DNA from: an uncultured bacterium
Lineage (GTDB): Bacteria; Chloroflexota; UBA5177; JANWHV01
Length of the DNA: 64,000 nucleotides
Direction of reading: 5' to 3'
Assembly: GCA_963827235.1 (NCBI GenBank)
Contig: CAWHAE010000010.1
Coordinates: 32,001-96,000, forward strand
Numbering within the stretch: the first letter of the stretch is position 1; each line of letters opens with the position of its first letter. Position numbers and translations under genes: made by a program. This document shows positions 12,635 through 42,535 of this stretch, one piece after another. The notes under the pieces are model-generated. The model saw only the letters and a program-made list of their open reading frames with translations. It did no database searches and was not told the DNA's origin.

Positions 12635-13924
12635 TCAGGCGACCAGCAGCCAGGAGTCAGCGTGGGTGCCAGCGCTGCCGTGAGCTGCGAGGATATGCCT
12701 GCCAGGGGCAGGTCGGATGTTGTGCGCGCTGACAGGGCTGTGCTGGTGGTCGTACAACTCCAGGCTCCACGTGCCATCCGAAAGCGCGGTGACGTAGCCG
12801 TGATAGCGGCTGTCCCAGAACAGGGCGACCGTCTCATTCGGCTGGAATCCGGTACCGGACACGGCGAGCTCTTCGCCGTTGGCCAGGACGGCTCGGTGTG
12901 GCTGCGGCGCGCCGTCACGCAGCACGGTCGCGGTGATGGTCGGGTACGCCGCGAGTGCCGCGTGCATCGCAGGGGCAGCCGTGATGCGCAGGGCGTCGGC
13001 CGTGATGATGGCACTGGTATTGGCTTCCAGATACGGCCAGGAGATCTCCGCATAGCCGTTCAGGCCCCAGCTTGTGCCCCAGGAGTTCTCGACCCAAGCG
13101 CCGGCGTTGTCGTAGCCCATCACAACCAGCTCGTGGCCGCCCAGGGAGGCGGCTGGATCCGCCGGCACCGGCGCAATCCACGCGCTCGTGGCGGTCGCAT
13201 TGTAGAGATTGGGATATACGGTGAGGCCGATAAGCGCCGGATGGCCGGCGGCCAGCGCGGTCTCGATGACGGTACGCACCCTGCTGGGGTTTGTGTCCCA
13301 GTCGCGCGGGTCGCCGATTTGGGCGGCGCGACCGGGGAAATACGTGATGCCGGCGAGGGCATAATGCCGGGCCAGGGCGCGCTGAGCAGCGGTAGGCCGG
13401 CTGCGCCAGGCGTAGTTGCCTTGCTGGTAATCGGCCAGGGGCAGCATGCCCTGCTGCGCAGCCGCGAGGACCTGTGACTCCCAGCTTCCTGCATCCTGGT
13501 GGCCGTCGACCTGGCCATAGGTGAAGAGCGGTGCGAAGTAGCCGGTGGGGAGGTGCTGCTTGTCGACGTACCAGCCGGCGAGCGTGTAGACGGCAGCCCA
13601 GGCCACGCAGTCGCTCACCCAGCCCTGGTCGCCCACGGGTGGCGCGTTGCGGCTGAGATCGACGCTGGTCGGGAATATGGTTGTCTGGCCGAGCAGGGTG
13701 AGGGGTGGCAGCGGCCCGTAGTCGGTGCTTCGTGTGCCCGGCAGGAGGTGCAGACCTCTCCGTGGCGCTATCGGCGCGGACCAAGCGGGCCCCGCGGCGC
13801 GTGCTACGAGGCCGCCTGCGCTCAACAAGGCGCTTCCCAGGGGGAGCAGAGCGAGAAGACCCGCTCCTACCAGCAGCAGGGAGTTCGATCCTAACGGACC
13901 GCGGCGTGCGCGATGCGCGTTCAT
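12635..13924 (-). CDS. Secreted papain-like C1 cysteine peptidase with a C-terminal Ig-like domain
   Basis: VDLS...PPVGDQGWVSDCVAWA (Gln/Cys), GGHELVVMGYD (His), ENSWGTSWGLNGY (Asn); N-terminal hydrophobic segment. Confidence 0.85.
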   Translation of the reverse strand: MNAHRARRGPLGSNSLLLVGAGLLALLPLGSALLSAGGLVARAAGPAWSAPIAPRRGLHLLPGTRSTDYGPLPPLTLLGQTTIFPTSVDLSRNAPPVGDQGWVSDCVAWAAVYTLAGWYVDKQHLPTGYFAPLFTYGQVDGHQDAGSWESQVLAAAQQGMLPLADYQQGNYAWRSRPTAAQRALARHYALAGITYFPGRAAQIGDPRDWDTNPSRVRTVIETALAAGHPALIGLTVYPNLYNATATSAWIAPVPADPAASLGGHELVVMGYDNAGAWVENSWGTSWGLNGYAEISWPYLEANTSAIITADALRITAAPAMHAALAAYPTITATVLRDGAPQPHRAVLANGEELAVSGTGFQPNETVALFWDSRYHGYVTALSDGTWSLELYDHQHSPVSAHNIRPAPGRHILAAHGSAGTHADSWLLVA

Positions 13925-14050
13925 CGACGATTCGCCAGACGGCGGTGTGCTGAGGGCCAGCGCGTGTCTGGCAGGCCTCCTCTCTCCTGGTGCAGCGGGC
14001 TGCGATCTTCGAACGCCTCCAGCTTGGGCGCCGATGCTCCGGCGGGCCAC

Positions 14051-14089
14051 GCACAAGACGCTCAAGTAGTCGCACAACCTGCCGCACAA
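14051..14089 (-). promoter_or_regulatory. TTG(T/A)GC direct repeats at 12-bp period upstream of the peptidase
   Basis: Plus strand shows gcacaa at 14084 and 14072, gctcaa at 14060 and gcacaa at 14051. Confidence 0.4.
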
Positions 14090-14413
14090 CCGGCTGTAGA
14101 GGCGGGAGAGTGCGCACGTGACAGACGACCTCAGGTACCACCCACATGGGATGCACGGAGCCGGCGTCGACGGCGCATGGACTGGGCGTTGCGCTGCGTA
14201 CCTCTCCGCCCGGGCATGCAGGTTCCACCGCGGCGCCGGCATCAGCGCGTGGCAGCCTCTGGGCGAGCACGATGCGTGCGCCGAGGTAGGCCGGCCGTCT
14301 AGAGACTGCTCAGGCCGATGTGGTAGAGTGGTACCGGTGACCTCGCGCACGGTCCAGCTCACCCGTGCCGGCGTGCTGGGGCGTGCCCGAGGGAAGGGAC
14401 TCGGGTGCCTGCC

Positions 14414-17400
14414 ATGGCCCAAGCGCCGTTGTTCGGCGAGCTGCTGCGACGCGCCCGCGTGGCGGCCGGCCTGACCCAGGAGGCACTGGCCGAACGGGCA
14501 GGGCTGAGCGCCACGGCGATCAGCGCTCTCGAACGGGGCGTCCGCCAAACACCGCAGGGCGAGACGCTGCGCCTGCTGACCAACGCGCTCGCCCTTCCCG
14601 ATAGTGAGCAAGCGCGGCTGGCGGCAGCGGCGCGCCGGCTCGACGCCCGCAGCGGAACGATCCCGGCAGCGAGTTCTCTGGCTGCCACTGGGGCGGTCGA
14701 GCCGCACGCCGGATGCGGCGTCGCGGGTGCCCCTCTGTCCGAAGCGGAGGCCCCGGTCGTCTACCTCGCACACGCGCGTGCCGATCGCGCGCTGGTAGCC
14801 CGCCTCGGCGCCGAGCTGCTTGCGCACGGCATCCGCCCGTGGCGCGGTGCGCAGGAACTCCAGCCTGGCAGCCCAGGGTGGGAGCAAGACGCACGTGATG
14901 CCATCCGCGCTGCCAGAGCAATCCTCTATCTCGGCTCGCCTGAGGCTCGAGCCTCCCGCTACGTGGCGGACGAGCTGCGCGTCGCCGAACTCTACCGGCG
15001 GCCGATCTACCCGCTGTGGCTGGCGGGCGAGGCGTGGCTGGAGTGCGTGCCCCTGGGCTGGGGCGGCATGCAGTACCTGGACGCGCGCGGCGGACGCTCT
15101 GCCGCCGCGCTCGACGAGGTCGCGGCGCTGCTGCGCGGTGACCAGGCGCCGGCGGCACCGTCCGGGGCGTTACCAAACGACGAGGCGCAGGGCACGCCCC
15201 GCAACCCCTACAAGGGGCTGCGCGCCTTTGATGCCGCGGATGCCGGCGACTTCTTCGGTCGCGAGTCGGCGGTCGGCAGCCTGCTCGCGGCGCTGGCCGG
15301 CGAGAATGAGCAGGCGCCGCGCTTTCTGGCCGTCGTGGGGCCGAGCGGGTCGGGCAAGTCCAGCCTGGTCCTGGCCGGCCTACTGCCCCGGCTGCGGCGC
15401 GGCGCGCTGCCGGGCAGTGCCGGATGGATTGACTTGCCGCCGGTCGTGCCAGGCGCGCATCCGCTCGAAGCGCTGAGCGTGGCGCTGGCTGCTTCCCTCC
15501 CTGCCTCGCCCGTTCAGGCTGTGCACGCCGATCTGGAGGCATCGGCGCGCGGGCTGCATCTGCTCGGCCAGCGGCTGGCACCCGAGAGCGGCAGGCGTGT
15601 CGTGCTCGTGGCCGATCAGTTCGAGGAACTGTTCACGCTGGCGGTCGACGAGGCGGAGCGGCAGCACTGCATCGACCTCCTGGTCACGGCGGCGACCGAG
15701 TCCAGGGGACCGGTCCTTGTCATACTCACCCTGCGCGCCGACTTCTTCGACCGGCCGCTGGCCTATCCTGAATTGGCGGCGTTGTTCGACGGGCAGAGCA
15801 AGGCGGTGCTGCCCATGACGTCGGCCGACCTCCGTGCCGCCATCGAAGGCCCGGCTGCCTTGACCGACGTGCAGCTCACCTTTGAAGGAGATCTCGTGGG
15901 CGATCTGCTCTTCGAGGTGCGCGGCCAGGCGGGCGCGCTGCCGCTGCTCGAGTTCACCCTGGAGCAATTGGTGCTGCGCCGCGACGGGCACCGCCTGACA
16001 CTCGCCGCCTACCAGGCGCTGGGCGGGGTGCGCGGCGCCCTGGCCCGGCACGCAGAGGCGGTGTTCGCGGGCCTGCCAAGCGAGGAGCAGCGGCATCTGT
16101 GCCGCGCCCTGTTCTTGCGCTTGATTACGCCCGGAGCCAGTGAACAGGAGACGATGAGGCGGCGAGCCGGGGTGCAGGAGCTGGTGCTGGAGGATGCCGA
16201 GCAGACCCGCCTGCTGCAAGCGACCGCCGAGGCCTTCATCGCGGCCCGCCTGCTGAGCACGTCCGACGGCAGCGGCGGTGCCACGATCGAGGTCAGCCAC
16301 GAGGCATTGCTGCGGGAGTGGGAGCGGCTTGGCGCCTGGCTGCAGCAGGCGTGGGGGGACATCAGACTGCAGCAGTCCGTCAGCGCCGACGCGGCGGAGT
16401 GGGAGCGACAGGGCTGGGATCCCGATTACCTCTATCGCGGCGCGCTGCTGCTGGAGGCGCGCGGCTGGGCGGCGCGGAATCTGCCGAGCGTTAGCGAGGC
16501 GGCGTTCGTGGCGGCGGGCGTGGCGGCGGAGGCGCAGCGGGCCGCGGCGGAACGGGAGCGCCAGGCGCACGAGCTGGCCCTCGAACGGCGCGCCGCTTCC
16601 CGGCTACGGGTACTGACGGGGGCCTTACTGGCCTTCCTCGCGGTAGCAGCCGGGCTGGCGACCGTGGCGATCAACGCGGCCAACACCGCACGGACGAGCG
16701 AGCGTCAGGAAGCCGCCGCCAAAGCCACGGCGCTCGCCCGGCGAGATCTGGCATTGTCGACCACCCTCGCGTTGCAGTCCGTGAGTCATCTGGACGATCA
16801 GACGACGCTCGCGCTGCTGTTGAGCGTGCAAGCCAATCGCCTGGCGAGCACAGTAGAAGCCCGGGGCGCGCTGCTGCAGAGCTTCCAGCACCAGCACAGC
16901 CGGTTGGTCGCAGTGCTGCGGGGCGATCCCGTGGGTGCAGCGGGCGTCAGCTTCAGTCCCGATGGCCGGCGCCTGAGCGCGGTCGGCGTTGGCGGGACCG
17001 TCCGGCAGTGGGACGTGGCAACCCTGCGGCAGCAGAGCCTCTCGGTCACGGTCCCCGGCGTTACGAGCACGCTCGCCGCCGTAACCATCAGCGCCGACGG
17101 CACTCTGATGGCATGCAGTAGCGCCGGGGCGCCGGTCGTCTGGGACCTGCTGCACGGGCACCGCATCGGCGACTTCAGCACCGGCAGCCCAGCCGGTGCC
17201 GTGACGGCGCTCGCTTTCAACGCCGACGGTACCGTCCTCGTCGCGGCCTACACGCCAAATGTGATCAGGCTGTGGGATGTCGCCCATCAGCGCCTGATCG
17301 GTAGTTTCGTTGCGAGCCAGCAAGGCGCCATTGACAGCATGGCGTTCAGCCCAGACGGCAGAACCCTGGCCGTGGGCAGCGATGACGGCTCGCTGTGGCT

Positions 17401-18850
17401 GTGGGACGCGCCACGGCGCCGGGCGATCGCCGGGCTGCTCGAAAACGCCGCGCTGGCTGCCGTGTCTTCTGTGACGTTCAGCCCCGACGGCTCGATCCTG
17501 GCGTCGAACGCGAACGGACGGGTGCAGCTCTGGGACGTGGCACACCGGCGGCCGTTCGGCCAATCGCTCGCGCAAGGGCCGCAGGCCGTCTACAGCGTGG
17601 CTTTCAGCCATGATGGCGCCATCCTGGCGTCGGCCAGCACCGACGGCAGTGTCCAGCTCTGGAGCATGCCGCGCGGGCAGCCCCTCGGCGCACCGCTCAC
17701 GGGCTCCGCGGCCGGCATGGCGGCCGGTCTCGGCTACGGCAATGGCCTGGCCGACCTGGCGTTCAGTCCGGATGACGGCCTGCTTGCCTCGGGCGGCCAG
17801 TCGGACGCGGTGAGACTGTGGGATGTCTCCGCCGCCCATACCCTGGGTCTTCCCCTGCCCGGAAGCGCCAATCCCGCCGCCGGCGTCGCCATGAGCCCGG
17901 ACGGCTCGCTGGCAGCCTCCGCAGGAGCAAACAAGACGATTCTCGTGTGGGACCTGGCCGGACGCCGGCTGCGCTGCAGCCCGCTGGCCGGCCACACCGA
18001 CTACGTCAACAGCCTGGCCTTCAGCCCGGACGGCAGGATTCTGGCGTCCGGCGCTGACGACGCGACAATCAGGCTCTGGGACGTGGCCCACTGCCGGCCG
18101 CTGGGCGCACCGCTCGCCGATCCGGCAGGGGCCGCCGTCGAGAGCCTGGCGTTTGGCGGCGATGGCCGGGTACTGGTCGCGGGCAACGCAGACGCGAGCG
18201 TCCGCTTGTGGGATGTGTCTCGGCGGCAGGTGATCGGTCTGCCGCTCGTCGGGCCCGCCATGCGGGCCTGGAGCGTGGCCGTCAGCCGCGACGGCAGGAT
18301 GGTGGCCAGCGGGAACCTGGACGGCAGCGTGTGGCTGTGGCACCTGTGGAGCGGCGACCGCCCGGGACTGCTGCTGTCGGGGCACACGGGCGCCGTCTAC
18401 AGCGTGGCCTGCAGTCCCGACGGCCGCACGCTCGCCACAGGCGGCGCCGATGGGACGATCCGCCTGTGGGACACGGCGACGGCGCGCGCAATCGGCGCAC
18501 CGCTGGTCGCCAACGCCGTGGTGCGCAGCGTCGCGTTCAGCCCAGACGGCGCCACACTGGCCTCGGCCGGCGACGACGAGTCCATCCGCCTGTGGGATGT
18601 GGCGACCCAGCTGGCGGTGGGGCCGTCGCTCACCGGCCACACGGGCGGTGTGTGGGGCGTGGCCTTTGGGCCAGGTGGCAAGACGCTGGTGTCGGTGGGC
18701 ACGGACCAGACGCTCAGGACCTGGACCATCGATCCGGCGGTGCTGGAACGGCGTGTCTGCCAGATAGCAGGGCGCAACCTGACTCCCGGCGAGTGGCAGC
18801 ACTACCTGGGAGGCCTGCCGTATCAGAAGACTTGCGCGGCCTACCCATAA
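14414..18850 (+). CDS. XRE-HTH - TIR - nSTAND1 NTPase - TM - 14xWD40 protein (sensor A)
   Basis: GLTQEALAERAG HTH; TIR 'YLAHARAD..SRYVADEL'; NPYKGLRAF..FFGR; GPSGSGKSS; DQFEELF; LRADF; LPLLEFTL; HEALLREW; TM helix; 14 WD repeats. Confidence 0.9.
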   Translation: MAQAPLFGELLRRARVAAGLTQEALAERAGLSATAISALERGVRQTPQGETLRLLTNALALPDSEQARLAAAARRLDARSGTIPAASSLAATGAVEPHAGCGVAGAPLSEAEAPVVYLAHARADRALVARLGAELLAHGIRPWRGAQELQPGSPGWEQDARDAIRAARAILYLGSPEARASRYVADELRVAELYRRPIYPLWLAGEAWLECVPLGWGGMQYLDARGGRSAAALDEVAALLRGDQAPAAPSGALPNDEAQGTPRNPYKGLRAFDAADAGDFFGRESAVGSLLAALAGENEQAPRFLAVVGPSGSGKSSLVLAGLLPRLRRGALPGSAGWIDLPPVVPGAHPLEALSVALAASLPASPVQAVHADLEASARGLHLLGQRLAPESGRRVVLVADQFEELFTLAVDEAERQHCIDLLVTAATESRGPVLVILTLRADFFDRPLAYPELAALFDGQSKAVLPMTSADLRAAIEGPAALTDVQLTFEGDLVGDLLFEVRGQAGALPLLEFTLEQLVLRRDGHRLTLAAYQALGGVRGALARHAEAVFAGLPSEEQRHLCRALFLRLITPGASEQETMRRRAGVQELVLEDAEQTRLLQATAEAFIAARLLSTSDGSGGATIEVSHEALLREWERLGAWLQQAWGDIRLQQSVSADAAEWERQGWDPDYLYRGALLLEARGWAARNLPSVSEAAFVAAGVAAEAQRAAAERERQAHELALERRAASRLRVLTGALLAFLAVAAGLATVAINAANTARTSERQEAAAKATALARRDLALSTTLALQSVSHLDDQTTLALLLSVQANRLASTVEARGALLQSFQHQHSRLVAVLRGDPVGAAGVSFSPDGRRLSAVGVGGTVRQWDVATLRQQSLSVTVPGVTSTLAAVTISADGTLMACSSAGAPVVWDLLHGHRIGDFSTGSPAGAVTALAFNADGTVLVAAYTPNVIRLWDVAHQRLIGSFVASQQGAIDSMAFSPDGRTLAVGSDDGSLWLWDAPRRRAIAGLLENAALAAVSSVTFSPDGSILASNANGRVQLWDVAHRRPFGQSLAQGPQAVYSVAFSHDGAILASASTDGSVQLWSMPRGQPLGAPLTGSAAGMAAGLGYGNGLADLAFSPDDGLLASGGQSDAVRLWDVSAAHTLGLPLPGSANPAAGVAMSPDGSLAASAGANKTILVWDLAGRRLRCSPLAGHTDYVNSLAFSPDGRILASGADDATIRLWDVAHCRPLGAPLADPAGAAVESLAFGGDGRVLVAGNADASVRLWDVSRRQVIGLPLVGPAMRAWSVAVSRDGRMVASGNLDGSVWLWHLWSGDRPGLLLSGHTGAVYSVACSPDGRTLATGGADGTIRLWDTATARAIGAPLVANAVVRSVAFSPDGATLASAGDDESIRLWDVATQLAVGPSLTGHTGGVWGVAFGPGGKTLVSVGTDQTLRTWTIDPAVLERRVCQIAGRNLTPGEWQHYLGGLPYQKTCAAYP

Positions 18851-18884
18851 CTCGCGACGCACGATGGGCAGAGGAGGACGAGAG

Positions 18885-20129
18885 ATGAGACGAAGCCTGC
18901 TCGGAGTTGTGGCAATGGTGCTGGCTGCCGCGCCGTCCGCGGGCGGCGCGGGCGCGGTATCTCAGCGTGCCGGCGCGACCATCACCGTGTGGGAAGACCT
19001 GAACTCCATTCCGGCGGTGGATGGGCTTACCGCGCTGGCGGACAGGTGGGGCGCCGCCAACGGACTGAGCGTGAAGTTCGTCACCTTCGGCCAGCCCGGG
19101 GGTACCAACTGCATTCCCTGTCAGTTCCCGCCCAAGGCGAAGAGCAAAGACGGCCCGGACATCATCTATTTTCCGGAGGACGAGCAGGGCGGCTACGCGG
19201 TAGCCAAGCTGATCGCGCCACGGCCGGCCGGCGTGCTCAGTGCGTCCGACCTGGCAAGGTACCAGCCGTTTGCGCAGGCCGCGACCTTGGTCGACGGCGT
19301 GCCGTACTCGATTCCACACGACGAAGACGGCCTGCTGCTGTTCTACAACAAGCGGCTGGTGCACGATCCTCCCGCCACCTGGACACAGCTGATCGCCAGC
19401 GCCAGCAGGCTGACGAAAGGCAACCAGTCCGGCTTTCTCTACTGGATCTCGGGTGGTCTCTACTACAACTACTGGGCGTACGGCGGCTACGGCGCCTACG
19501 TCTTCGGGAGCAAAGGCGGGAAGGTCGACATCAGAGACATCGGGCTCGACAATGCCGCCGCCGTGCAGGCTCTCACCTTCATCCGATCGCTCACCGCGAT
19601 CGTGCCGAAGAGCGTCGACTATTCATTTGTCAGCCAAGCGTTCCAGGCCGGCCGGGCGGCGATGATCCTGGACGGCCCGTGGAATCTCGACTCCTATGCC
19701 GGGTCATTGGGGCCGGACCTGGGCGCCGCCGACATCCCGGCCCTGCCGGGCGGCTACGTGAGCAGGCCGTTCGTCGGCATTCGCGTCTGGGCGGTCAACC
19801 GCTACAGCGCGCACCAGGCTGCCGCCTGGGATCTGGCACGGTACCTGAGCCTGAACGGCCAGGCGATCACCGCCAGGTACGAGGATCGCCTGCCGACGCT
19901 CCGAGTCGCGCCCGGCTTTACGCCGAACGCGCTGCAACTGGCCGCCGAGCGGCAGTTCAGCGCAGGCATCCTGATGCCGAACTCGCCGGCCATGTCCCAG
20001 GTCTGGGACCCAGAGTACAACGCTATCAACCTCGTGCTGCAGGGGAAAGCGTCGCCACGGCAGGCCCTCAAGACGGCTGTTCAGAAGATCAAGAAGTCGT
20101 ACGCGACGTGCCGGTGTCTCGGCCGTTGA
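18885..20129 (+). CDS. Sugar ABC-type extracellular solute-binding protein (MalE-like), no permeases nearby
   Basis: Signal peptide; GPDII, LFYNKRL..PPATW..LI, FQAGRAAMILDGPWN, MPNSPAMSQVW. Confidence 0.85.
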   Translation: MRRSLLGVVAMVLAAAPSAGGAGAVSQRAGATITVWEDLNSIPAVDGLTALADRWGAANGLSVKFVTFGQPGGTNCIPCQFPPKAKSKDGPDIIYFPEDEQGGYAVAKLIAPRPAGVLSASDLARYQPFAQAATLVDGVPYSIPHDEDGLLLFYNKRLVHDPPATWTQLIASASRLTKGNQSGFLYWISGGLYYNYWAYGGYGAYVFGSKGGKVDIRDIGLDNAAAVQALTFIRSLTAIVPKSVDYSFVSQAFQAGRAAMILDGPWNLDSYAGSLGPDLGAADIPALPGGYVSRPFVGIRVWAVNRYSAHQAAAWDLARYLSLNGQAITARYEDRLPTLRVAPGFTPNALQLAAERQFSAGILMPNSPAMSQVWDPEYNAINLVLQGKASPRQALKTAVQKIKKSYATCRCLGR

Positions 20130-20431
20130 TCGGCCGACTGCCGCGGCGCTGCGTGACAATGCCGACTACGGCGGCGTGTCTTCGGATGCTGCTCTGCCGC
20201 CTGCGCATACTCACGAATGGCGCCGACATCAGTGCCGAACGTTGTCATGGTTAGCCGCCTGTTCGGTGCTGCTTGCGGTCGAGTTGTTCCGGGCAGGCAC
20301 CTGTTGCACACGGTTGTAGACTCCAGCCTGTCACTCGCCGGGCTGTCCGCGCCGGCGTGAGCGCAGGTCCCGGGAGGCTTGGGCACATATCACGCAGCGG
20401 GGGGAGCGTAGCTCGAGACTTCGCGCCACAG

Positions 20432-21709: not shown

Positions 21710-22003
21710 GAGCGTGCTCCTTTCAGGTCGATGGCCACTGCCCGAGGTCGGACCACCGTGGCCGGTGCGGTCCATGCGCGGTGCCCGCATCGCTCGCGGC
21801 TGATCCCTCCTGCCGGCGAGCCCGGGCACTGCTCACCGCCACTCTGCGCCTGGAGTGCTGCCGGCACCACACAGGCCGGCACAGGAAGGTCACAGGTGGG
21901 CCCACATCGTGCTCCCTGTGACCGCCGGCCTCGGCTCCAGCACGGCCAGACCACAGTGCGCGGTCGAGATCGGGCGGCGCGCTGCGGAGGGGGCGGTGCG
22001 CCG

Positions 22004-22032
22004 TTGCGCCGGGCGGGCAGGTGGACTATGCT
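22004..22032 (+). promoter_or_regulatory. Sigma70-type promoter TTGCGC-N17-TATGCT
   Basis: Exact 17-bp spacing; same boxes conserved at 42417-42445. Confidence 0.6.
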
Positions 22033-22135
22033 CAGAGAGAACGAGAACCCGGCGCCGTGCCCGCCGTTCCTGCGGAGGATGGTTGTGCGCTCAGCGCGTG
22101 GGCCGCGCTGCCGGGCCCGTCCGCGTGGAGGCGCT

Positions 22136-25100
22136 GTGCAGCGCAGGGATCCCGGTCCCGCCTTCGGGGTGCTGCTGCGACGCTACCGGGAGGCTGCCGG
22201 CCTGACCCAAGAGGGGCTGGCCGAGCGGGCAGGGGTGAGCGCGCGTGCCGTCAGCGACCTGGAGCGCGGGGTCAACCGCGCCCCGCGCGCGGACACGCTG
22301 GGACTGCTGGCCAAGGCGCTCCAGCTGCCGCCGGAGGACCGCACCCGGCTGGAAGCCGCTGGGCGCCGCGTGGACGAGTCCGAGATCACCCCCAGCGTGT
22401 TCGACGCGCCGGCGACAATGTCCTCCAAGGACGTTGGGGTGCGGCTGCCGATCGAAGACCGGACCCCCTCCGTCGTCCTGTCGTACACGGCAGAGGACGG
22501 CGAGTTCGCGGCGCGCTTGCTGAACGACCTGGCCGCGCGCGGCATCGCCGGGTGGCCGGAGCGCACGGAATTGCGGCGCGGGGCCGGCGGGCCGGAGGGT
22601 TTGCGGACCGCGATGCGCGCCTGCCGCGCGGTAGCGCTGGTGGTCTCGCCCGCGGCGCGTGCGTCGCGCCTGGTCACCATGGAGCTGGGCCTGGCCGAAA
22701 TGTACGGCCGTGCCATCGTGCCCGTCTGGGCGGCGGGGGATCGGTGGCTCGAGTGCGCGCCGGCGGAGCTGGCGGGCGTGCCCTGCGTGGACGCGCGCGG
22801 GGCGCGCTATCCCGAGGCCGTCGCCGCCCTCGTGGCCGCGCTCGGCGCGATCTCTCCCGGCTGGCCACTGGAGCACTCCGTGCCCGCACCTGCCGCGCCG
22901 GCTGCGCCGCGCAACCCGTACAAGGGCCTGCGCGCCTTCGTCGAGGAGGACGCGGGGGACTTCTTCGGGAGGACCGCCTTTGTGCAGACTCTGCTGGAGA
23001 TTGTAGCTGCCACCCTAGCAGGCGGGCCGCCCGCACCGGCCCGCCTGCTGGCGGTAGTAGGGCCGAGCGGCTCGGGCAAGTCCAGCCTGGTACGCGCCGG
23101 ACTCCTCACCCGCCTCAAGGCCGGCGCCGTGCCGGGCAGCGAGGGCTGGGTCTACCTCGATCCGGTGCTCCCCGGTGCGCATCCCCTGGAGGCGCTGGCC
23201 GTGAGCTTGGCGGGCAGGCTGGACCGCAGCATACACACCCTGCGCGAGGACTTGAGCGGCGATGACGCCCGTGGGCTGCACCTGTGGGCCCGGCAGCTGG
23301 CGGCGCGTCTCGAGCAGCGAGTGGTGCTGCTCGTCGACCAGTTCGAAGAGCTGTTCACCCTCACCACGGACGAGCAAGAGCGCCGCCAGTTCATCGACCT
23401 GCTGCTCACGGCGACCACCGAGTCGCGCGGGTCGCTGTTGGTCATGTTGACGCTGCGAGCCGACTTCTACGACCGGCCGCTGGCCTATCCGGCATTCGGC
23501 GCCCTTCTACAGAGCCATGGCCAAGTGGTGCTGCCGATGTCCACTGCCGAACTGCGCGAAGCCATCGAGCGGCCTGCCGGCCTGCCCGACGTACAGCTGA
23601 GCTTTGAGAGCGGACTGGTGGGCGACCTGCTCTACGAGGTGGCAGGGCAGGCGGGCGCGCTGCCCCTGCTGGAGTTCACCCTCGAGCAGCTCGCGGACCG
23701 CCGGCAGGGACGCCTGTTGACCGCAGCCGTCTACCAGGAGATCGGCGGGGTGCGCGGCGCGTTGAGCCGGCAAGCGGAGGCGACGTTCGCTGCGCTGCCC
23801 TCCGACGCGCACCGCGACCTGGCTCGGGCGCTGTTTCTGCGCCTGATCGACCCGGGTGCAACAGAGCAGGACACCACGCGCCGCCGGGCGGCGCTGGAGG
23901 AGATGACCCTCCCCGATTCCCACCAGAGCGCGCTGATGCAGGACGTGGCAGACGCCTTCGTGGCGGCGCGGCTGCTGACCTCCGGCGAGCATGCCGGTGT
24001 GACTACCCTGGACGTAAGCCACGAGGCCCTGATCAGCGCCTGGAGCCGCCTCGCGGGCTGGCTGCGCGAGGCGCGCGAGGACGTGCGGCTCCAGCAGACG
24101 ATCAGCGCGGACGCCGCGGCATGGGCGCGGCGCGGTCGGCAGGCCGACCACCTGTATCGGGGGAGTGTCCTGGAGGAGGCGCAGGCGTGGGCGGCGCGGA
24201 ACGTTCCGAGCGCCTGGGAGGTGGCCTTCCTGGAAGCGGGCGTCGCCGAGGCGCAGCGGCAGGAGGCGGCTCAGCGCGAGGCGCAGGCGCGCGAGCTTGG
24301 GCTCGCGCAAGCGGCGGTAAGCGCTAACCGGCGCGCGGCCGGGCGGTTGCGGGCGCTGGCCGTGGTGCTGGCGTTGTTCCTGGTGGTGGCGGCGGGCTTG
24401 AGCGTGGCCGCGCTCAACAATGCCTCTGACGCCTCACGGGCCCGGACCCGTGCTGCGGCCAATGCCTCTGCCGCGCTGAGCGCGCTCTCTCGCGTGTTGG
24501 CCTTGCAGGCCGGCACACTCCTCAACAGCCAGTTGCAGGTCGCGTTGCTCCTGAGTGTGGAAGCCGACCGGCTGAACAGCTCGCCACAGACTCGTGCCAG
24601 CTTGGTTCGCGCGGTCAACTCCAACCCGCGGCTGCTCGCCTTTCTGGCCACGCTGGCCAGTCCCGTGGAGAGCGTGGCCTTCAGTCCGAACGGAGCGATC
24701 CTGGCATCCGGCAGCGGCGACGGCACCGTGCGCCTGTGGGATGTGGCACACCGAGGGGCTCTCGGCCCGCCCCTCGCCGGCCACTCTGATGCCGTGAACA
24801 GCGTGGTCTTCAGCCCCGACGGCAAGACACTGGCCTCGGCCAGCAACGACGGCACAGTACGGCTGTGGGACGTGGTTCGCCGCCAGCCCCTTGGTCCCTC
24901 CCTGACCGGGCAGCCGGGTTTCCTGAACAGCGTGGCCTTCAGCCCCGACGGCCGTATTCTGGCGTGCGGCGGCAGCGCCGGCACGATCCAGCTGTGGGAC
25001 GTGACAGGCCACCGGCCGCTCGGTGCGCCGCTGGGCGGGCAGGCTGGGTTCGTCTATGGCCTGGCCTTCAGCCCGGATGGCAGGCTGCTGGCCGCAGGCA

Positions 25101-26575
25101 GCGGCGACGGCACAATCCGGCTGTGGGACGTGGCCCGCCGCCGGACAATCGGGCCAGCGCTCAGTGGACACAGCGGTGAGGTGCATAGCCTGACCTTCAG
25201 TCCCGATGGCCGGACGCTCGCCGCCGGCGGGGGCACGGGCACCATCGTGCTGTGGGACGTGGCGAGCGGGCGCGTGTCCGGGGCGTCACTGACCGGGCAC
25301 ACCGGTCCGGTGTACAGTGTGGCCTTCAGCTCAGACGGCACGACACTGGCGTCTGGAGGCGAGGACGGCACCATCCGGCTCTGGGACGTGGCGACCCGGC
25401 TGCCCGTCGGTTCGCCGTACCCGGGACATGGCGGCCCGGTGTATGGGGTAGCCTTCAGCCCAGACGGCACGACGCTGGCGTCGGGAGGCGAGGACGGCAC
25501 AATTCGCCTCTGGGACGCGGCGGCCAGCCCGGCCAGCCCGGCCAGCCCGGCCAGCCGGGTGCTCGCCGGGCACAGTGACCAAGTGAATAGCGTGGCCTTC
25601 AGCCCGGACGGACGGATCCTGGCCTCCAGTAGCAACGACGCGACCATCCGGCTCTGGAACGTGTCGACCGGCCGGCTGCTCGGCCCGCCGCTTGCCGCGC
25701 ACGCCGGCCCTGTGCTGGACGAGGCGTTCAGCCCGGACGGGCGCACCCTGGTCTCGCACAGTTACGACGGTGAGACCGCCGTATCGACCATCCGCTTCTG
25801 GAGCGTGCCCACCGGCCGCCCGCTCGGGACGCCCAACATCGCGCATACCGGCACAGTGGACAGTGAGGCTCTCAGTGCCGACGGCAAGATCGTGGCCTTG
25901 GGCGGTGAGGACGGCACAATCTGGCTGTGGGATGTCGCGCGCCGGCGGCCGCCCCGCCCGTGGCTCACCACGGGGGGCGCTGTCGGCCTGCTAGCCTTCA
26001 GCCGCGACGGCACCGTCCTGGCCTCCGGCGGGGCGGACAATACCATCCGCCTGTGGAGCACGGCCAGCGGCCGGGCGCTCGGTCCTTCCATCATCGGGCC
26101 AGCGCTGTGGGCCATGGCCTTCAGCCCCGACGGCACGATCCTGGCCGCGGGGGGCACCGGCACCGTCTTCCTGTGGGACGTGGCGAGCGGACGGGCGCTG
26201 GTTTCGCCGCACACGTGGTATACCGCATGTGGCTATTGCGACACGAGCAGTGTGGCCTTCAGCCCCGGTAGCACCACATTGGCTGCCGGCGACGCCGAGG
26301 GCACCGTCTCGCTCTGGGACGTGGCGAGCGGGCAGGCGCTCGGCCCGGCTCTCGCCGGGCAAGAAAGCGATATCGCAAGCCTTGCTTTCAGCCCCGATGG
26401 GGGGCTGCTGGCCTCCGGCAGCTACGACGCTACGGTCCGCCTGTGGCCCATGCCGACGCGGCAGTCGCCTGTGCAGCGTGCCTGCGCGATCGCCAATCGC
26501 AACCTGACGCCCCAGGAATGGCGGCAGTACCTCAGCGATCTGCCCTACCACAAGACGTGCGGGGACGTTCCTTGA
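22136..26575 (+). CDS. XRE-HTH - TIR - nSTAND1 NTPase - TM - 14xWD40 protein (sensor B)
   Basis: GTG after ggagg; same domain motifs as sensor A; TIR 'SRLVTMEL'; C-terminal C.IA.RNLT..EW..YL..LPY.KTC. Confidence 0.9.
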   Translation: MQRRDPGPAFGVLLRRYREAAGLTQEGLAERAGVSARAVSDLERGVNRAPRADTLGLLAKALQLPPEDRTRLEAAGRRVDESEITPSVFDAPATMSSKDVGVRLPIEDRTPSVVLSYTAEDGEFAARLLNDLAARGIAGWPERTELRRGAGGPEGLRTAMRACRAVALVVSPAARASRLVTMELGLAEMYGRAIVPVWAAGDRWLECAPAELAGVPCVDARGARYPEAVAALVAALGAISPGWPLEHSVPAPAAPAAPRNPYKGLRAFVEEDAGDFFGRTAFVQTLLEIVAATLAGGPPAPARLLAVVGPSGSGKSSLVRAGLLTRLKAGAVPGSEGWVYLDPVLPGAHPLEALAVSLAGRLDRSIHTLREDLSGDDARGLHLWARQLAARLEQRVVLLVDQFEELFTLTTDEQERRQFIDLLLTATTESRGSLLVMLTLRADFYDRPLAYPAFGALLQSHGQVVLPMSTAELREAIERPAGLPDVQLSFESGLVGDLLYEVAGQAGALPLLEFTLEQLADRRQGRLLTAAVYQEIGGVRGALSRQAEATFAALPSDAHRDLARALFLRLIDPGATEQDTTRRRAALEEMTLPDSHQSALMQDVADAFVAARLLTSGEHAGVTTLDVSHEALISAWSRLAGWLREAREDVRLQQTISADAAAWARRGRQADHLYRGSVLEEAQAWAARNVPSAWEVAFLEAGVAEAQRQEAAQREAQARELGLAQAAVSANRRAAGRLRALAVVLALFLVVAAGLSVAALNNASDASRARTRAAANASAALSALSRVLALQAGTLLNSQLQVALLLSVEADRLNSSPQTRASLVRAVNSNPRLLAFLATLASPVESVAFSPNGAILASGSGDGTVRLWDVAHRGALGPPLAGHSDAVNSVVFSPDGKTLASASNDGTVRLWDVVRRQPLGPSLTGQPGFLNSVAFSPDGRILACGGSAGTIQLWDVTGHRPLGAPLGGQAGFVYGLAFSPDGRLLAAGSGDGTIRLWDVARRRTIGPALSGHSGEVHSLTFSPDGRTLAAGGGTGTIVLWDVASGRVSGASLTGHTGPVYSVAFSSDGTTLASGGEDGTIRLWDVATRLPVGSPYPGHGGPVYGVAFSPDGTTLASGGEDGTIRLWDAAASPASPASPASRVLAGHSDQVNSVAFSPDGRILASSSNDATIRLWNVSTGRLLGPPLAAHAGPVLDEAFSPDGRTLVSHSYDGETAVSTIRFWSVPTGRPLGTPNIAHTGTVDSEALSADGKIVALGGEDGTIWLWDVARRRPPRPWLTTGGAVGLLAFSRDGTVLASGGADNTIRLWSTASGRALGPSIIGPALWAMAFSPDGTILAAGGTGTVFLWDVASGRALVSPHTWYTACGYCDTSSVAFSPGSTTLAAGDAEGTVSLWDVASGQALGPALAGQESDIASLAFSPDGGLLASGSYDATVRLWPMPTRQSPVQRACAIANRNLTPQEWRQYLSDLPYHKTCGDVP
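25521..25556 (+). repeat. 9-bp microsatellite (cggccagcc)x4 in the inter-propeller linker
   Basis: Encodes ASPASPASPAS between WD repeats 7 and 8. Confidence 0.85.
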
Positions 26576-26788
26576 AGCCCGTTGAGACGGTATGCTCTGC
26601 CACGTAGCAGGCGCGTCCCGAGAGGGCGGAGATATTGCAGCAGCGGGCTGGGGCGAGACGCTGATCCGCGGTGTCCACGCCAAGAAGGGTGGCACGCCGG
26701 CACTGGGCGCATGTGTCACGCACACCATTCACGGCTGCGAAGAGTCTACGTGGGACTCTGCGCACCCTGCACGCACTCGGGCTACACC

Positions 26789-27373
26789 TCAGTACTGCAC
26801 GAGGACTTCCTCGGCATGGACGCCGGCGGTGCTGGGGCCGAGGTCCAGCATGTCGTCACGGTAGTACCCCGGCCAGGCCGGAATTGGCCACATCTCCGGA
26901 TACGCCATGCCCCCCGCTACCATCGGGTTGTGTACGTCGCGCACCACCCTCGAGCCATCGAACGTCACCCACTCGTCGGAAACATAGAAGTTCCACGCAC
27001 AAGGGCTAAAGTAGCCCTTGCCATGTGCCGCCAGGTGGCAGAGACCCGTGAAAGCCGTGCTCCCCCACAGCTTGGCGTCGCATTGCGGGCTGACGTCACT
27101 GCCGCTGCCTGCGAGCGTCGCCTCATACGAGAATGTGGCGCTGCCCGCGGCAGTACTCACGATATCCACCGTGACGGCCAGCGTGACGGCGCCCGGCGCA
27201 TGGTCGGCCAGGGCGCAGACTTCACCGGGACCGTGGCCGGGCTCGCAGCTCCAAAACAGCTGAGCCAGCCAGTGACCGGCCAGCGACGGGGTACCGGCCG
27301 CCGCCGCGGTGTGTACCGGTAGGCAGGCCAGCACCAACAAGAGGCTTGCGAACAGCTGATGTGTGACGCGCAT
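26789..27373 (-). CDS. Secreted Cys-containing hypothetical protein
   Basis: RBS aaggag; signal peptide ending in an Ala-rich cleavage region; several Cys. Confidence 0.7.
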   Translation of the reverse strand: MRVTHQLFASLLLVLACLPVHTAAAAGTPSLAGHWLAQLFWSCEPGHGPGEVCALADHAPGAVTLAVTVDIVSTAAGSATFSYEATLAGSGSDVSPQCDAKLWGSTAFTGLCHLAAHGKGYFSPCAWNFYVSDEWVTFDGSRVVRDVHNPMVAGGMAYPEMWPIPAWPGYYRDDMLDLGPSTAGVHAEEVLVQY

Positions 27374-27741
27374 CGTCTATGCTCCTTTCGGCCCTTCCCT
27401 CGTGTCACACGGCGTGTCGTGCGGCGCCGCTGGCTGCCCCAGTCCGTCGGCGGGCTGGCTGTCTCCACGAGCCTCCAGTCCTCAGCCGACCGATCGTCCC
27501 GATTTCATCGATACGGGCAGCGTAGGCCGTCCAGGAGCCGCCGGCCACGCAGACCGGAAGCGGTACCCGCAGGTCTGTGCCAACCGGCGAAACCTGTGCC
27601 TAACGCTTCGCCATCCAGGCTCGCCGCCCACGCAGCGCTCATGCTCGGCGCAGTGCTATGATCACGACGAGCGCCCTCGCGTGGCGGAAGCGCAGATGCA
27701 CACGGCGAGCTTGACACCCACGACGGGGACCGCGCACAGAC

Positions 27742-30700
27742 GTGGAGACCACCCAATCCTTCGGTGAGCAGCTGCGGGAGGGGCGGCTGGCGGCAGGGCT
27801 GACGCAGGAAGCCCTGGCCGAGCGGGCCGGGGTGAGTGCGCGCGGCATCCAGGCCCTGGAAGGGAGCGAGAGCAAGCCGCAACGGGAGACGGCCAGGCGG
27901 CTGGCTGCGGCGTTGGGCCTGCCCGCGTCTGCGCACCCGGCGTTTCTGGCCGCCGCGGGACCGGCACCGCGTCGCCGGACGGTCGCTGCGCCCGAGGCGC
28001 CCGCCGCGCCTCTGCCACCCACGGTCGGGCCACCCGACCTCGGCAGCCGGCCACCCCTGGTCGGGCGCCAGCGGGAGGTGGCGGCGCTGGAGGCGCACTT
28101 GGCCGGCAAGGGACCGCCCCTGCTGCTGTTCGCCGGCGAGCCGGGTATCGGCAAGACTCGCCTGCTGCAGGAGGCAGCACCCCGGGCCATCCCGCGGGGC
28201 TGGGCGGTGCTGGCAGGCGGGTGCAGCCGTGGCACGGGCGAGCCCTTTGCGCCGCTGCTGCAGGCCCTGGAGCGGCATGTGGCGAGCCGGGCGGTGGCGG
28301 CCTTGCGCGCGGAGCTGGCGGGCTGCGCCTGGCTGGTCCGCCTGCTCCCCGACCTGCCTGCCGATGCCATCGAGCCGCTGCCGCACTGGGTGCTGCAGCC
28401 CGAGCAGGAGCGACACCTGCTGTTCAAGTCGGTCAGCCGCTTCCTGACCAACCTGGCGGGAGCGGCCGGAACGCTGCTGCTGCTGGACGACCTGCAGTGG
28501 GCGGGCGCCGATGCCTGCGACCTGCTCGCCAGTCTGCTCCGCCAGCCGCAAGATGTGCCGTTGCGCTTGGTGGGCGCCTACCGAGATACGGACGTCGGGC
28601 CCGCGCACCCGCTCGTGCTAGCCCTGGCCGAGCTGGGCGAAGCGCAACTGGCAACCGAGCACACGCTGGGTCCCCTGGCGCCAGCCGAGGCCCAGGCGCT
28701 CTTCCTGCAGGCCCTGGGCGAGCCTGGACAGGACAGCGAGGCTCTGGCGGCGCAGGTTGCGTCGCGCGCCGCCGGCGTCCCCTTCTACCTGGTGAGCTAT
28801 GCGCGGAGCGTGCAGAGCCGGCAGACCGAGGGGCCGACTGCACCGGGCGTGCCCTGGGACCTGCGGCAGAGCATCCGGCGCCGGGTGCAGGCCCTGCCGG
28901 AGGCCACACGGACGCTGCTGGGCACGGCGGCGGTGCTGGGCCGTGTGGTGCCCCGCACGCGGCTGCTCGCGGTGATGGGACTGCCCGAGGGTGAAGTCCT
29001 CGATGCCGTGCAGCACGCCTGCCGCGCCGGGCTGCTGGAGGAGACGGCGGACGACGCCTATGCCTTCGTGCACGACCTGATCCGCGAGGTGGTGGAAGCG
29101 GACCTGGCGCTGGGGCGCCGCCGCCTGCTGCACCAGCAGGTGGCCGAAGCCCTGGAACGCGCACCCGGCAAGCCGCCCGTGGAGGCGCTGGCCTACCACT
29201 TCCGGGAGGCGGGCGATGCGGCGCGGGCGGCGATCTACCTGGAGCAGGCCGGCGATCAGGCGGCGGCCCGGTTCGCTGACACGGCGGCGGCGGAGCGCTA
29301 CCGGCATCTGGTGGCGTGCCTCGAGGGACTGGGCGGCGCCGAGGCCGACCTCCTGCGCGCCCGTGAGAAGCTGGGCATTGTCCTGGCATGGCGCTTGGGG
29401 CAGTTCGGCGCCGCGCTGGCGGTGCTGGACCAGGCCGCGAGCATGCTCCGCCTGGCGGGCGACCAGGCAGGCATGGCCAGAGTGGAAACGCTCATCGCTG
29501 GGATCTACGGAGACAGAGGTCCCTTTCCGGCGGGGATAGCGCGCCTGCAGCCGATCGTGGCCACACTGGAGTCCCGCGGCCCCTCCGGCGAGCTGGCCAA
29601 GGTGTACTTGAGGCTGGCCAACCTCCACGCGTCGAATGGGCAGCCGGACTACGCGTTGGACTATGGCAGCCGCGGGGAGAAGATCGCCCGTGCGCTGAGC
29701 GACCAGGCTCTGCTGCTCTGGGCACTCACGAACCACGCCTACGTCTGCATCATGGCGAGCCGCGCCGATGAAGCGCTCCGGGCGGCCCAGGAGGCCGCAG
29801 CTTTGGCGGGACCGGAGGACGATGAGCCATGGGGCATACTGGCCTGGACCCTCGAGGAGCGCGGCGAGACCCGAGGACTCATGGGGGCCCTACGGGGGCC
29901 CTACCACCAACTGGCCTGGATCCATGAGGAGCGGGGCGAGTACGAGCAGGGCAGGCAGGCCGCCGAGCACATGCTCGCGATCGCGGAGGGGGCACGGGAT
30001 CCGGCCGGCATCATCACCGCCATGAGCCGGCTGGGGCTAGACGCTTTCCTGAGCGGTGATTGGGTCGCCGGCCGTGCCTACCTGGAGCGCGGCCTGGCCC
30101 TCGCGGACGAGATGGGCTTCAGGGACGGATTTAACTACACTGGCCCGCGCGTCGACCTGGGGCGACTCCTGCATGCCGCGGGCGCCTGGGACGAGGCGGC
30201 GCAGTACTTCGAAGCGGTGCTGGCAGTCTCAGGAGGAACGGGCGAGCGTTTGCACGCGCTCATCGCTCGTGCCCTCCTGGCCGAGCGCGAGGCGGTCGCC
30301 GGCCATCCCGAGGCGGCCTGTGCGCGCCTACTCCCGCTCCGCGACCAGCCGGGTCAGGAGGAGCGTATCGTGACGCAGTACGTGCTGCCCGTGCTGGCCT
30401 GGGCGCAGCTCGAAGCGGGCCAGATCGATCAGGCTGCCGGTACGGTGCGCGAGGCACTTGAGCGGGCGCGGCGCGGCACCTGCCGGCTGGCATGGGCAGA
30501 GGACCTGCGGGTGCAGGCCCTTGTGCTGTTGGCGCAGGGGTGCTGGGACGAGGCAGAGCAGGCGCTGGCGGAGGGTCTGGCCCTGACGCGGAGCATGCCC
30601 TACCCGCACGGCGAGGGACGGCTGCTGGCGGTCTACGGCCGCCTGCACCTGGCCCGCGGCGACGCTGCGGCCGCGCCGAGCCTGCCTGGAGGACGCGCTG

Positions 30701-30772
30701 ACTATCTTCCGGCGGCTGGGGGCGCGCGCGGATATTGAGAGTGCCGAGCAGCTGCTGGCCACGCTCGGCTGA
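27742..30772 (+). CDS. XRE-HTH - AAA_16 STAND ATPase - TPR regulator (sensor C), with a +1 frameshift near 30676
   Basis: GEPGIGKTRL, LLLDDLQWA, GVPFYL, FVHDLIRE, LAYH; the shifted frame gives RACLEDALTIFRRLGARADIESAEQLLATLG*, matching the C-terminus of paralog D. Confidence 0.85.
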
Positions 30773-42416: not shown

Positions 42417-42445
42417 TTGCGCCGGGCGGGCAGGTGCACTATGCT
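42417..42445 (+). promoter_or_regulatory. Sigma70-type promoter TTGCGC-N17-TATGCT
   Basis: Near-identical to 22004-22032. Confidence 0.6.
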
Positions 42446-42535
42446 CAGAGCGAACGAGAACCCGGCGCCGTGCGCGCGACTGCCGTCCGCCTGGCACGTG
42501 GGCGGTGGTGCCGGGCCCGTGGGCGTGGAGGCGCT

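Follow-up and report, generated by a model that had tools for sequence, protein, structure and literature searches.

XRE-headed STAND proteins paired with divergent genes in a Chloroflexota genome: a lineage-specific expansion of probable local transcription factors

Three times in succession, the genome of an uncultured bacterium of the phylum Chloroflexota places a gene for a secreted protein head to head with a large gene that resembles a nucleotide-binding immune receptor, and the question raised by this locus is whether the arrangement reflects a coincidence, a weapon or a regulatory device. The locus lies within a stretch of 64,000 nucleotides (nt) (hereafter, the window), corresponding to positions 32001–96000 of contig C10 in the genome under study (labelled G000; 8.0 Mb, 21 contigs, GC content roughly 65%). 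In each of the three cassettes, a partner gene (A, D or F) is divergent from a gene (B, E or G, respectively) encoding an N-terminal XRE-family helix-turn-helix (HTH) domain, an NTPase of the STAND (signal-transduction ATPases that have numerous domains) class and a C-terminal repeat sensor; a fourth gene of the latter kind, H, is located outside the cassettes. A first-pass annotation of the window had interpreted the cassettes as "sense-and-secrete" modules, in which receptors related to NOD-like receptors (NLRs) switch on extracellular effectors, possibly as an undescribed surveillance, antagonism or predation system. The three cassettes (with H, four) are members of a lineage-specific expansion in which an XRE HTH is joined to an NLR-like NTPase switch and to a repeat sensor, and the genes of the region probably encode STAND-type one-component transcription factors like GutR, MalT or AfsR rather than a weapon system. 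The anatomy of established STAND transcription factors, namely a DNA-binding domain, a nucleotide-binding oligomerisation domain (NOD) and a repeat sensor, was recognised with Pfam in B, E, G and H; these proteins are therefore read here as sensor-gated, oligomerising transcription factors. They occur in two main formats: HTH-TIR-nSTAND1-transmembrane (TM) helix-WD40 (B and E) and HTH-AAA_16/NB-ARC-TPR, which is predicted to be fully cytoplasmic (G and H).

The first line of evidence is the behaviour of the whole family. A hidden Markov model (HMM) built from the window's four HTH heads was searched against all six-frame open reading frames (ORFs) of G000, with cut-offs of at least 600 amino acids (aa) for the ORF and at least 45 bits for the head, and 37 ORFs carrying the XRE head were identified. 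Eight of these have the HTH-TIR-nSTAND1 architecture, 10 are G-like HTH-AAA16-TPR proteins, and the other 19 are mostly HTH-NB-ARC/AAA_22-TPR proteins, among them one HTH-WD40 protein and two proteins in which no NTPase was recognised. At 33 of the 37 loci, the upstream neighbour is divergent, compared with 2438 of 6425 genes overall (38%; binomial, 1.4e-10). A divergent neighbour with a signal-peptide-like or TM-like N-terminus was found at 20 of the 37 loci, compared with 686 of 6425 (10.7%; p about 1e-10), using a script that scans 150 codons and also flags first TM helices, such as those of an MFS transporter and a GGDEF protein; gene A was added by hand, giving 21, because its signal peptide falls beyond the 150-codon scan. 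Thus, the layout of cargo gene and XRE-STAND gene exceeds chance. The pairing noticed in the first-pass annotation is a property of the family that extends well past three cassettes, and the enrichment of divergent signal-peptide genes beside XRE-STAND homologues, which had been proposed as its test, is present in G000.

The pairing also tracks the DNA-binding head. Sixteen HTH-nSTAND1 loci with a verified HTH were compared (nine in G000, six in the congener G004 and one in G003; the broken loci L104, which has a peptidase partner, and L112 were left out since their HTH is unverified) with 11 TIR-only nSTAND1 loci (those on contigs C16 and C18 of G000, L108–L111, L118 and L121–L124). A divergent signal-peptide or TM gene is present at 13 of the 16 HTH-bearing loci versus none of the 11 TIR-only loci (hypergeometric, 2.8e-5, calculated by hand); the 13 include one MFS transporter, for which the secreted protein is encoded by the next gene, and two members of a DUF3224-like pair, in which 87 codons of the ORF precede the hydrophobic segment. 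The pairing recurs at the orthologous loci of G004. Among 20 XRE-AAA16-TPR loci from 11 other Chloroflexota genomes, 14 are divergent from their neighbour, which in eight cases also has a signal peptide or TM segment. In other Chloroflexota, the N-terminal module of nSTAND1 proteins is a Ser/Thr kinase, with or without a TIR domain, or a TIR domain alone, and a related-locus search with residues 1–700 of gene B retrieved, for the most part, nSTAND1 proteins from other phyla that lack an HTH, which is present in only two of 80 (L051 and L054). As a separate observation, in another Chloroflexota genus (g59, family f22; L113–L115, L120, L125 and L126), the Pkinase-(TIR)-nSTAND1-WD40 genes are consistently divergent from a gene for a secreted GH15 glucodextranase-CBM protein of 867–914 aa.

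On these grounds, it is highly improbable that the paired genes lack any functional link, that is, that large accessory genes merely pile up in a rearranging hotspot and that the head-to-head layout is a by-product. Such a hotspot does exist, as the first 180 kb of contig C10 hold six XRE-STAND genes within 78 kb (at 6.5, 18.5, 46.4, 53.6, 59.7 and 74.4 kb) and three more, one of them broken, at 152–180 kb; in addition, transposase and integrase remnants occur at 47801–50901 of the window, gene debris lies upstream of H, and the background figures stem from a crude gene caller. Against this stand the size of both enrichments over background, the preservation of the pairing at orthologous loci of the congener and its divergent form at 14 of the 20 loci of other families, the absence of pairing from all 11 TIR-only relatives, and the recurrence of partner families across regulator classes, as described below.

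The two formats differ in their predicted relation to the membrane. Every nSTAND1-WD40 paralogue in G000, with or without an HTH, contains one hydrophobic stretch of 19 residues between the NTPase and the WD40 repeats (hydropathy score KD19, 2.07–2.92), preceded by an Arg-rich segment, whereas KD19 reaches only 1.6–1.7 in the AAA16-TPR proteins. Because this single TM helix accompanies a cytoplasmic HTH, the WD40 propellers are predicted from hydropathy and the positive-inside tendency to be located outside the cell.

The partner genes were grouped by all-against-all blastp into six recurrent families. Family I, the papain-like peptidases, occurs at four loci, with the same orphan solute-binding protein (SBP) following the sensor at three of them; family II, a secreted protein of about 230 aa, is present in seven copies beside four sensors; and family VI, the DUF3224-like proteins, lies beside two nSTAND1 genes of G000, one intact and one broken (L082 and L087). 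The remaining families cross the boundary between sensor classes: family III, a secreted protein of about 176 aa, adjoins two nSTAND1 genes and one AAA16-TPR gene; family IV, the F-like proteins, adjoins G as well as the nSTAND1 genes of L086 and L102; and family V, a secreted protein of 473 aa, lies near one sensor of each class. That families III–V span both classes argues that the pairs constitute a functional module rather than the product of simple tandem duplication. Across the 37 loci, the partners range from 94 to 750 aa and many are enzymes. They are a heterogeneous set that includes secreted orphans, a DUF346 lectin-like protein, a BNR propeller, YceI, a BBE oxidase and a GHL6 glycosidase; at 16–17 loci the partner is not secreted, examples being an MFS transporter, a GGDEF protein, cupin and ABM proteins, an aldo-keto reductase and a methyltransferase. 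The family therefore looks like a set of local regulators with varied targets, in which a strong bias toward secreted proteins is confined to the membrane-anchored subclass. The "sense-and-secrete" interpretation accordingly holds for the HTH-linked pairing of regulator and partner, and it is supported only in part because the partner genes are so heterogeneous, nearly half of them being not secreted.

The partner families also bear on the idea that the secreted partner, and the SBP where present, is the ligand or co-sensor of the regulator rather than its target, forming an autocrine, quorum or kin-recognition loop of the RRNPP type in which the WD40 domain reads its own partner. The predicted position of the WD40 sensor outside the cell would permit such a loop, the proteins paired with nSTAND1 sensors are small, secreted and restricted to the lineage, and the placement of an orphan SBP directly after the sensor is conserved at three loci. 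Orphan SBPs are known as co-sensors of membrane receptors. Nevertheless, families III, IV and V are also paired with cytoplasmic TPR regulators, which would be unable to meet a secreted protein, many partners are enzymes or cytoplasmic, and the divergent layout is the classical one of a regulator and its target. As the primary explanation, a ligand role is thus unlikely, and it can coexist with a transcription-factor function as a feedback loop.

If the partners are targets, operators would be expected in the shared intergenic regions, where the promoters have the following features. An extended −10 element, TGCTATGAT, or a near variant of it, is located 50–90 nt ahead of many XRE-STAND genes. 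Six of its 23 occurrences in the genome precede XRE-STAND genes and about 18 of the 23 are intergenic; it looks like the strong extended −10 consensus of the organism. Several of the other promoters with this element have a TTGACA-like −35 element at 17 nt; in contrast, several XRE-STAND promoters have no TTGACA-like −35 element, and three to four direct repeats with a period of 10–12 nt abut the −10 element instead. The repeat words differ between loci: four copies of GGCACA-N5 in L086 and L102, and three copies each of GGACCAGTAG in L091, GGGTNAAGTTG in L101 and CGGCAAG in L084. In HTH-anchored windows, arrays with a period of 10–12 nt were detected by TRF at 11 of 37 promoters versus 579 of 6427 (9%; p 3e-4), and exact 5-mer chains at nine of 37 versus 300 of 6427 (p 4e-5). 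Clusters of GCACA (at least three in 60 nt) are rare and enriched, occurring at two of 37 versus 11 of 6427 and, in other genomes, at two of 20 loci versus one of 140 control windows; the two array-bearing loci outside G000 (L146 and L150) contain the words CACGCAA and GCGCACAA, which are near the word of cassette 1.

A strict scan for four-unit arrays with perfect columns identified 27 intergenic arrays genome-wide, only two of which are at XRE-STAND promoters. No shared 12–16-mers other than the −10 box were found over 17 intergenic regions, a scan of this stretch for consensus promoters and terminators yielded nothing above shuffles, and a comparison of HTH recognition helices with repeat words for covariation was uninformative, as similar heads and words occurred only among related whole loci. 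Intergenic arrays of four 11-nt direct repeats were also observed at C8:203024, C12:231784, C16:1055034, C18:11904 and C9:560360, with words including TCGTAA, GGTCA and CTTCTT, and may be operators of other regulators. A separate indication of modularity comes from a block of 398 nt comprising promoter, leader and HTH, which is 80% identical (blastn) between H (42375–42759) and E (21962–22359). As this block is common to an nSTAND1-WD40 gene and an AAA16-TPR gene, heads and promoters appear to have been exchanged as a module between sensor classes.

The promoters, together with the TIR domain, are relevant to the view that B and E act in conflict or against phage as NLR-like proteins, in which the TIR NADase is the output (suicide or signalling), the XRE head merely autoregulates and the divergent genes are not targets. 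The literature assigns TIR-nSTAND1 proteins an effector role in the conflict systems of multicellular bacteria (PMC8195603, PMC10907252, each in part). Several of the arrays are located on the promoter of the STAND gene itself, promoter and HTH travel together, and the N-terminal modules (HTH, Pkinase or TIR alone) are swapped in the style of effector shuffling. Moreover, the Glu at the S..(W/Y)...E position, which we take to be the catalytic position of the TIR domain, is kept in seven of the eight HTH-bearing paralogues and replaced by Asp in one. Such an origin of the output is nonetheless improbable, since it leaves unexplained both the contrast in secreted partners between HTH-bearing and TIR-only loci and the presence of the same partner families beside TIR-less TPR regulators, and the predicted extracytoplasmic WD40 domain would be unsuited to intracellular phage proteins. 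The WD40 repeats also show no rapid concerted diversification at the DNA level, the only array detected being one of 129 nt with 71% identity. A search of PADLOC-DB 2.0 gave no system-specific match, returning generic HTH profiles (capH, RmrA and control protein), a partial SAVED-TIR match and P-loop matches, and the three cargo genes had no match to it at all; nothing in these results points to the surveillance, antagonism or predation system that had been suggested.

Under the preferred reading, that of STAND-type transcription factors, the following sequence of events can be envisaged. In B and E, the head, TIR domain and NTPase would be cytoplasmic and two WD40 propellers would lie outside the membrane. 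Binding of a ligand to the repeat sensor would release autoinhibition, and nucleotide-dependent oligomerisation, assisted by TIR in the B/E class, would gather several HTH heads, which could then bind, in the intergenic region common to both genes, short direct repeats placed at intervals of one helical turn. Occupancy would switch the divergent partner and often the regulator's own promoter as well. The partner would be a local, dedicated target, which for the nSTAND1 class is secreted in almost every case (a papain-like peptidase, an FG-GAP propeller or small orphans), and in the peptidase module the orphan MalE-like protein, probably co-transcribed, would be a candidate extracellular co-sensor. 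The TIR domain in B and E may serve as an oligomerisation aid, as a second enzymatic output, or both.

Several observations weigh against this reading. The neighbours of three congeneric loci among the 16 HTH-nSTAND1 loci (L100, L105 and L106) are co-directional, and the two Streptomyces HTH-nSTAND1 genes, L051 and L054, are located in co-directional operons. Gene H has neither a divergent partner nor a repeat array despite its E-like HTH and promoter. The share of promoters with detected arrays is only about one quarter to one third, the arrays in other genomes (TRF, two of 20 loci) are at the 9% background, and their position varies, abutting the −10 element at some loci and lying 120–270 nt upstream in cassettes 1 and 2; a first automated intergenic pass found only one in 14, with starts of the longest ORFs having swallowed intergenic regions. 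Because of this background level elsewhere, the variable position and the lack of an array at H, the repeats are a lead to the operator rather than proof of it. The putative catalytic Glu is kept in most TIR domains, so that an enzymatic, defence-like output is possible, and it is no more than plausible, by analogy, that a protein of about 1,500 aa tethered to the membrane would bind chromosomal DNA. Membrane-tethered DNA-binding regulators do have a ToxR-like precedent. Finally, gene calls were made with a crude GC3-based script written for the analysis instead of Prodigal, signal peptides were called with a similarly crude hydropathy script instead of SignalP, and the paralogues and orthologues are not independent, which inflates the statistics given above.

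The individual cassettes illustrate these properties. The six genes and their domains reported in the first-pass annotation were recovered; gene C, a seventh gene that follows gene B, had been overlooked, and the three cassettes are for this reason not strictly contiguous. In cassette 1, gene A (12635..13924, minus strand) encodes a secreted papain-like (C1) cysteine peptidase of 429 aa with an extra C-terminal domain, assigned using Pfam, hydropathy and PDB alignment. Its predicted signal peptide begins MNAH.., 321 codons inside the longest ORF. The Peptidase_C1 match is partial (E 9e-5; 23.1 bits versus a Pfam cut-off of 20.7), and residues 84–302 align to PDB 3ois_A with conservation of the Cys, His and Asn motifs (DQG..C, GGH..GYD and NSWG), placing the protein in the papain family (Peptidase C1); paralogues or orthologues of gene A adjoin three other STAND genes. 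Intergenic region 1 (13925..14404, 480 nt) contains phased direct repeats of CGCACAA at 14050–14093, and the pattern CGCACAA-N5-CGCACAA occurs once in the window and in none of 100 shuffles. A −10-like element, TGGTAGAGT, is located at 14321–14329, and an insertion of about 200 nt separates the array from the regulator's −10 element when compared with the paralogous locus (L081:5597-5890) on contig C1, a module 82% identical to cassette 1.

Gene B (14405..18850, plus strand) encodes a protein of 1481 aa, the nearest public relative of which is in a metagenome-assembled genome of Ktedonobacterales, its close protein relatives being annotated as Chloroflexota. Pfam domains HTH_3/HTH_31 (PF01381 and PF13560; 48.8 and 49.7 bits, above cut-off) at residues 10–72, TIR_2 (PF13676) at 119–237 (58.6 bits; cut-off 28) and nSTAND1 (PF20703) at 268–673 (E 7.7e-111; 371.8 bits; cut-off 27.1) are followed by about 14 WD40 blades. 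The Walker A motif is GPSGSGKSS and the Walker B region is DQFEELF, and the predicted single TM helix lies at residues about 736–754 (KD19 2.26) with an Arg-rich N-side. Gene C (18885..20129, plus strand; alternative start, 18864) starts 13–35 nt past the stop codon of gene B, with a GGAGGA ribosome-binding site ahead of the ATG at 18885; no terminator was detected between the two genes, and gene C is probably co-transcribed with gene B. Its product, which has a signal peptide, is a MalE-like solute-binding protein (SBP_bac_1; E 8.6e-29) that scores below the cut-offs of the GanS model and of the MalE equivalog (NF007011; 157.9 bits versus 291), and it is therefore classified as SBP_bac_1 only. 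No permease genes adjoin it among the gene calls of the window. The same SBP follows the STAND gene in L081:10336-11613 and L107:1692-2933, which with gene C makes three loci, and such an orphan SBP after a peptidase-type sensor may act as an extracellular co-sensor of the WD40 domain. The interval 11065–12454, immediately upstream of cassette 1, holds a minus-strand gene for an HTH_11-WYL-WCX regulator in divergent orientation to a Cdd1 (PF11731) gene.

In cassette 2, gene D (20432..21709, minus strand) encodes a secreted seven-bladed FG-GAP propeller of 425 aa (seven FG-GAP_2 matches, E 4.8e-102) with a predicted signal peptide beginning MTPRRTLCTLLL.. in the hydropathy script. Intergenic region 2 (21710..22096) contains CACAGG repeats with a period of 10–11 nt at 21867–21904 and a promoter-like site, TTGCGC-17-TATGCT, at about 22004–22032, and a 17-mer of this region is common to loci L085 and L103. 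Gene E (22097..26575, plus strand; ATG at 22097 or GTG at 22103; about 1490 aa) has the same architecture as gene B, with HTH_3/HTH_31 (56.5 and 54.5 bits, above cut-off), TIR_2 (50.6 bits versus 28), nSTAND1 (380.6 bits versus 27.1) and a predicted TM helix with a KD19 of 2.76; in both B and E, the nSTAND1 match spans profile positions 1–378 of 379 and is thus full-length.

In cassette 3, gene F (26789..27373, minus strand) encodes a family IV protein of 194 aa with a predicted signal peptide and five Cys in the mature part, to which no Pfam or NCBIfam family was assigned. Its relatives in a search of 5.8 billion proteins were only itself and one 73% orthologue, so the family, as judged from sequence, is lineage-restricted; its paralogues beside the nSTAND1 genes in L086 and L102 are 41–42% identical. 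An AF2 model from a four-sequence alignment is all-beta and too poor for use (pLDDT 46.9), and the ESM Atlas gave a best score of 0.87 and no family. Intergenic region 3 (27374..27741) contains two GGCACAG words on the minus (partner's) strand at 27575–27600 and the extended −10 element TGCTATGAT at 27654–27662. Gene G (27742..30738, plus strand; 998 aa) combines an XRE HTH (HTH_3/HTH_31, 39 and 42.3 bits, above cut-off), a MalT/LAL-type STAND NTPase (AAA_16, 78.6 bits; Walker A, GEPGIGKT; LLLDDLQW) and TPRs with a TPR_MalT match, without a TM helix (maximum KD19 1.67). Gene H (42434..45466, plus strand) is a fourth XRE-AAA_16-TPR gene (HTH_3/HTH_31, 48.5 and 47.9 bits, above cut-off; AAA_16, 83.4 bits). 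Upstream of H, an ORF fragment at 41652–42074 (minus strand) seems to be gene debris from a rearrangement; its end (..SLEEAVAYA..) presumably corresponds to the C-terminus of a TPR-type regulator, which it resembles. The mobile-element remnants at 47801–50901 consist of a fragment of a DUF4096 IS4/5 transposase, an AAA_14-DUF4143 gene and an integrase gene whose match is limited to the N-terminal SAM-like domain. Elsewhere in the window, a DUF346-repeat protein of 763 aa is encoded at 6560–8851 (minus strand), and on contig C12 another XRE-STAND gene has as its divergent partner a gene for a secreted protein of the DUF346/fucose-lectin-like type (L129:1867-3021).

In bacteria, NLR-like STAND proteins are at present regarded for the most part as intracellular detectors of phage with a lethal effect on the cell, and the STAND transcription factors of the classical kind amount to a few single genes, whereas about 37 with a common head are found in the one genome studied here. 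If the regulatory link is true, the TIR-nSTAND1 scaffold could be rewired from defence to transcriptional signalling, the family would provide a tractable modular set of sensor-promoter pairs and a natural system in which NLR oligomerisation is read out on DNA via phased direct repeats, as in AfsR, and several orphan families of secreted proteins would gain their first functional handle. A bolder extension, which is speculative and rather doubtful, is that B and E are single-polypeptide pathways in the style of Toll-like receptors (TLRs). The external propeller, possibly assisted by a binding protein, would drive oligomerisation of the NLR switch across the membrane, and each chain would have two outputs, the TIR domain and a DNA-binding head that activates the neighbouring secreted effector (protease or propeller). 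With about 30 cytoplasmic XRE-STAND paralogues sharing heads and target families, they would then form a modular NLR-based network that controls the secretome of a filamentous Chloroflexota without suicide.

How, then, do these proteins compare with known systems? GutR of Bacillus subtilis consists of an N-terminal HTH, an NTPase and TPRs and is divergent from its target gutB; it was compared by description. The likeness to MalT of Escherichia coli resides in gene G, with its MalT-type AAA_16 and TPR_MalT match; in MalT, however, the HTH is C-terminal and of the LuxR type, whereas that of G is N-terminal and of the XRE family, and G and H carry AAA_16 with no LuxR/GerE match, which sets them apart from the LAL/MalT group. 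Neither MalT nor GutR contains TIR, TM or WD40 segments, and both are single genes, unlike the 37-member expansion described here. The N-terminal DNA-binding domain, STAND NTPase and TPR sensor are also shared with AfsR of Streptomyces coelicolor, and several promoters of the present family, with a strong −10 element, no −35 element and repeats with a period of 10–12 nt, recall the arrangement of its binding sites; AfsR differs in that its regulon is pleiotropic, whereas local divergent genes are involved here, in that the head here is an XRE HTH, with no Trans_reg_C or BTAD in B, E, G or H as would be required of a Streptomyces antibiotic regulatory protein (SARP), and in that the B/E class adds TIR, a TM helix and WD40. 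The XRE-TPR quorum receptors of the RRNPP type likewise differ, as G and H possess an NTPase and the partners are proteins of 94–750 aa, many of them enzymes.

For the membrane-anchored class, the layout across the membrane, as predicted from hydropathy, resembles that of ToxR and CadC, in which a cytoplasmic DNA-binding head is joined by a single TM helix to an extracytoplasmic sensor, and that of Toll-like receptors, in which an extracellular repeat domain is joined by a TM helix to a cytoplasmic TIR domain; neither is known to contain a STAND NTPase, and the chain polarity of TLRs is opposite. [quoted passage not shown] PH0952 shares the order of N-terminal DNA-binding effector, NOD and TPR sensor with the present proteins; it is archaeal, has an ArsR-type head and was not found by sequence, the sole PDB match of gene G being a 69-aa HTH protein. 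With the TIR-nSTAND1 conflict proteins (Kaur, Burroughs, Iyer and Aravind, 2020/2021), Avs and bNACHT, the B/E class shares the TIR-nSTAND1 core (PF20703 over its full length, E 1e-111), a C-terminal WD40 sensor and swappable N-terminal modules; the XRE head, the TM helix between NTPase and sensor and the divergent secreted partner are absent from the passages of the published descriptions that were compared. In those passages (PMC10907252, PMC7159879, PMC8195603, PMC12224297 and PMC13581612), HTH domains figure only as generic effector modules, and neither the XRE-TIR-nSTAND1-TM-WD40 architecture nor its pairing with secreted genes is described. Databases do contain the architecture, under names assigned automatically by JGI, for example [quoted passage not shown]. 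In a 2026 survey, which cites GutR and MalT as non-immune STANDs, STAND regulators fall in non-defence clades interspersed with defence clades (PMC13581612, in part). Since STAND-type transcription factors (MalT, GutR, AfsR and PH0952) are already an established kind, the description of the locus as an undescribed system was an overstatement; the novelty would lie within that known kind, in a STAND transcription factor built on a TIR-nSTAND1 scaffold with a TM helix and WD40 propellers predicted to be external.

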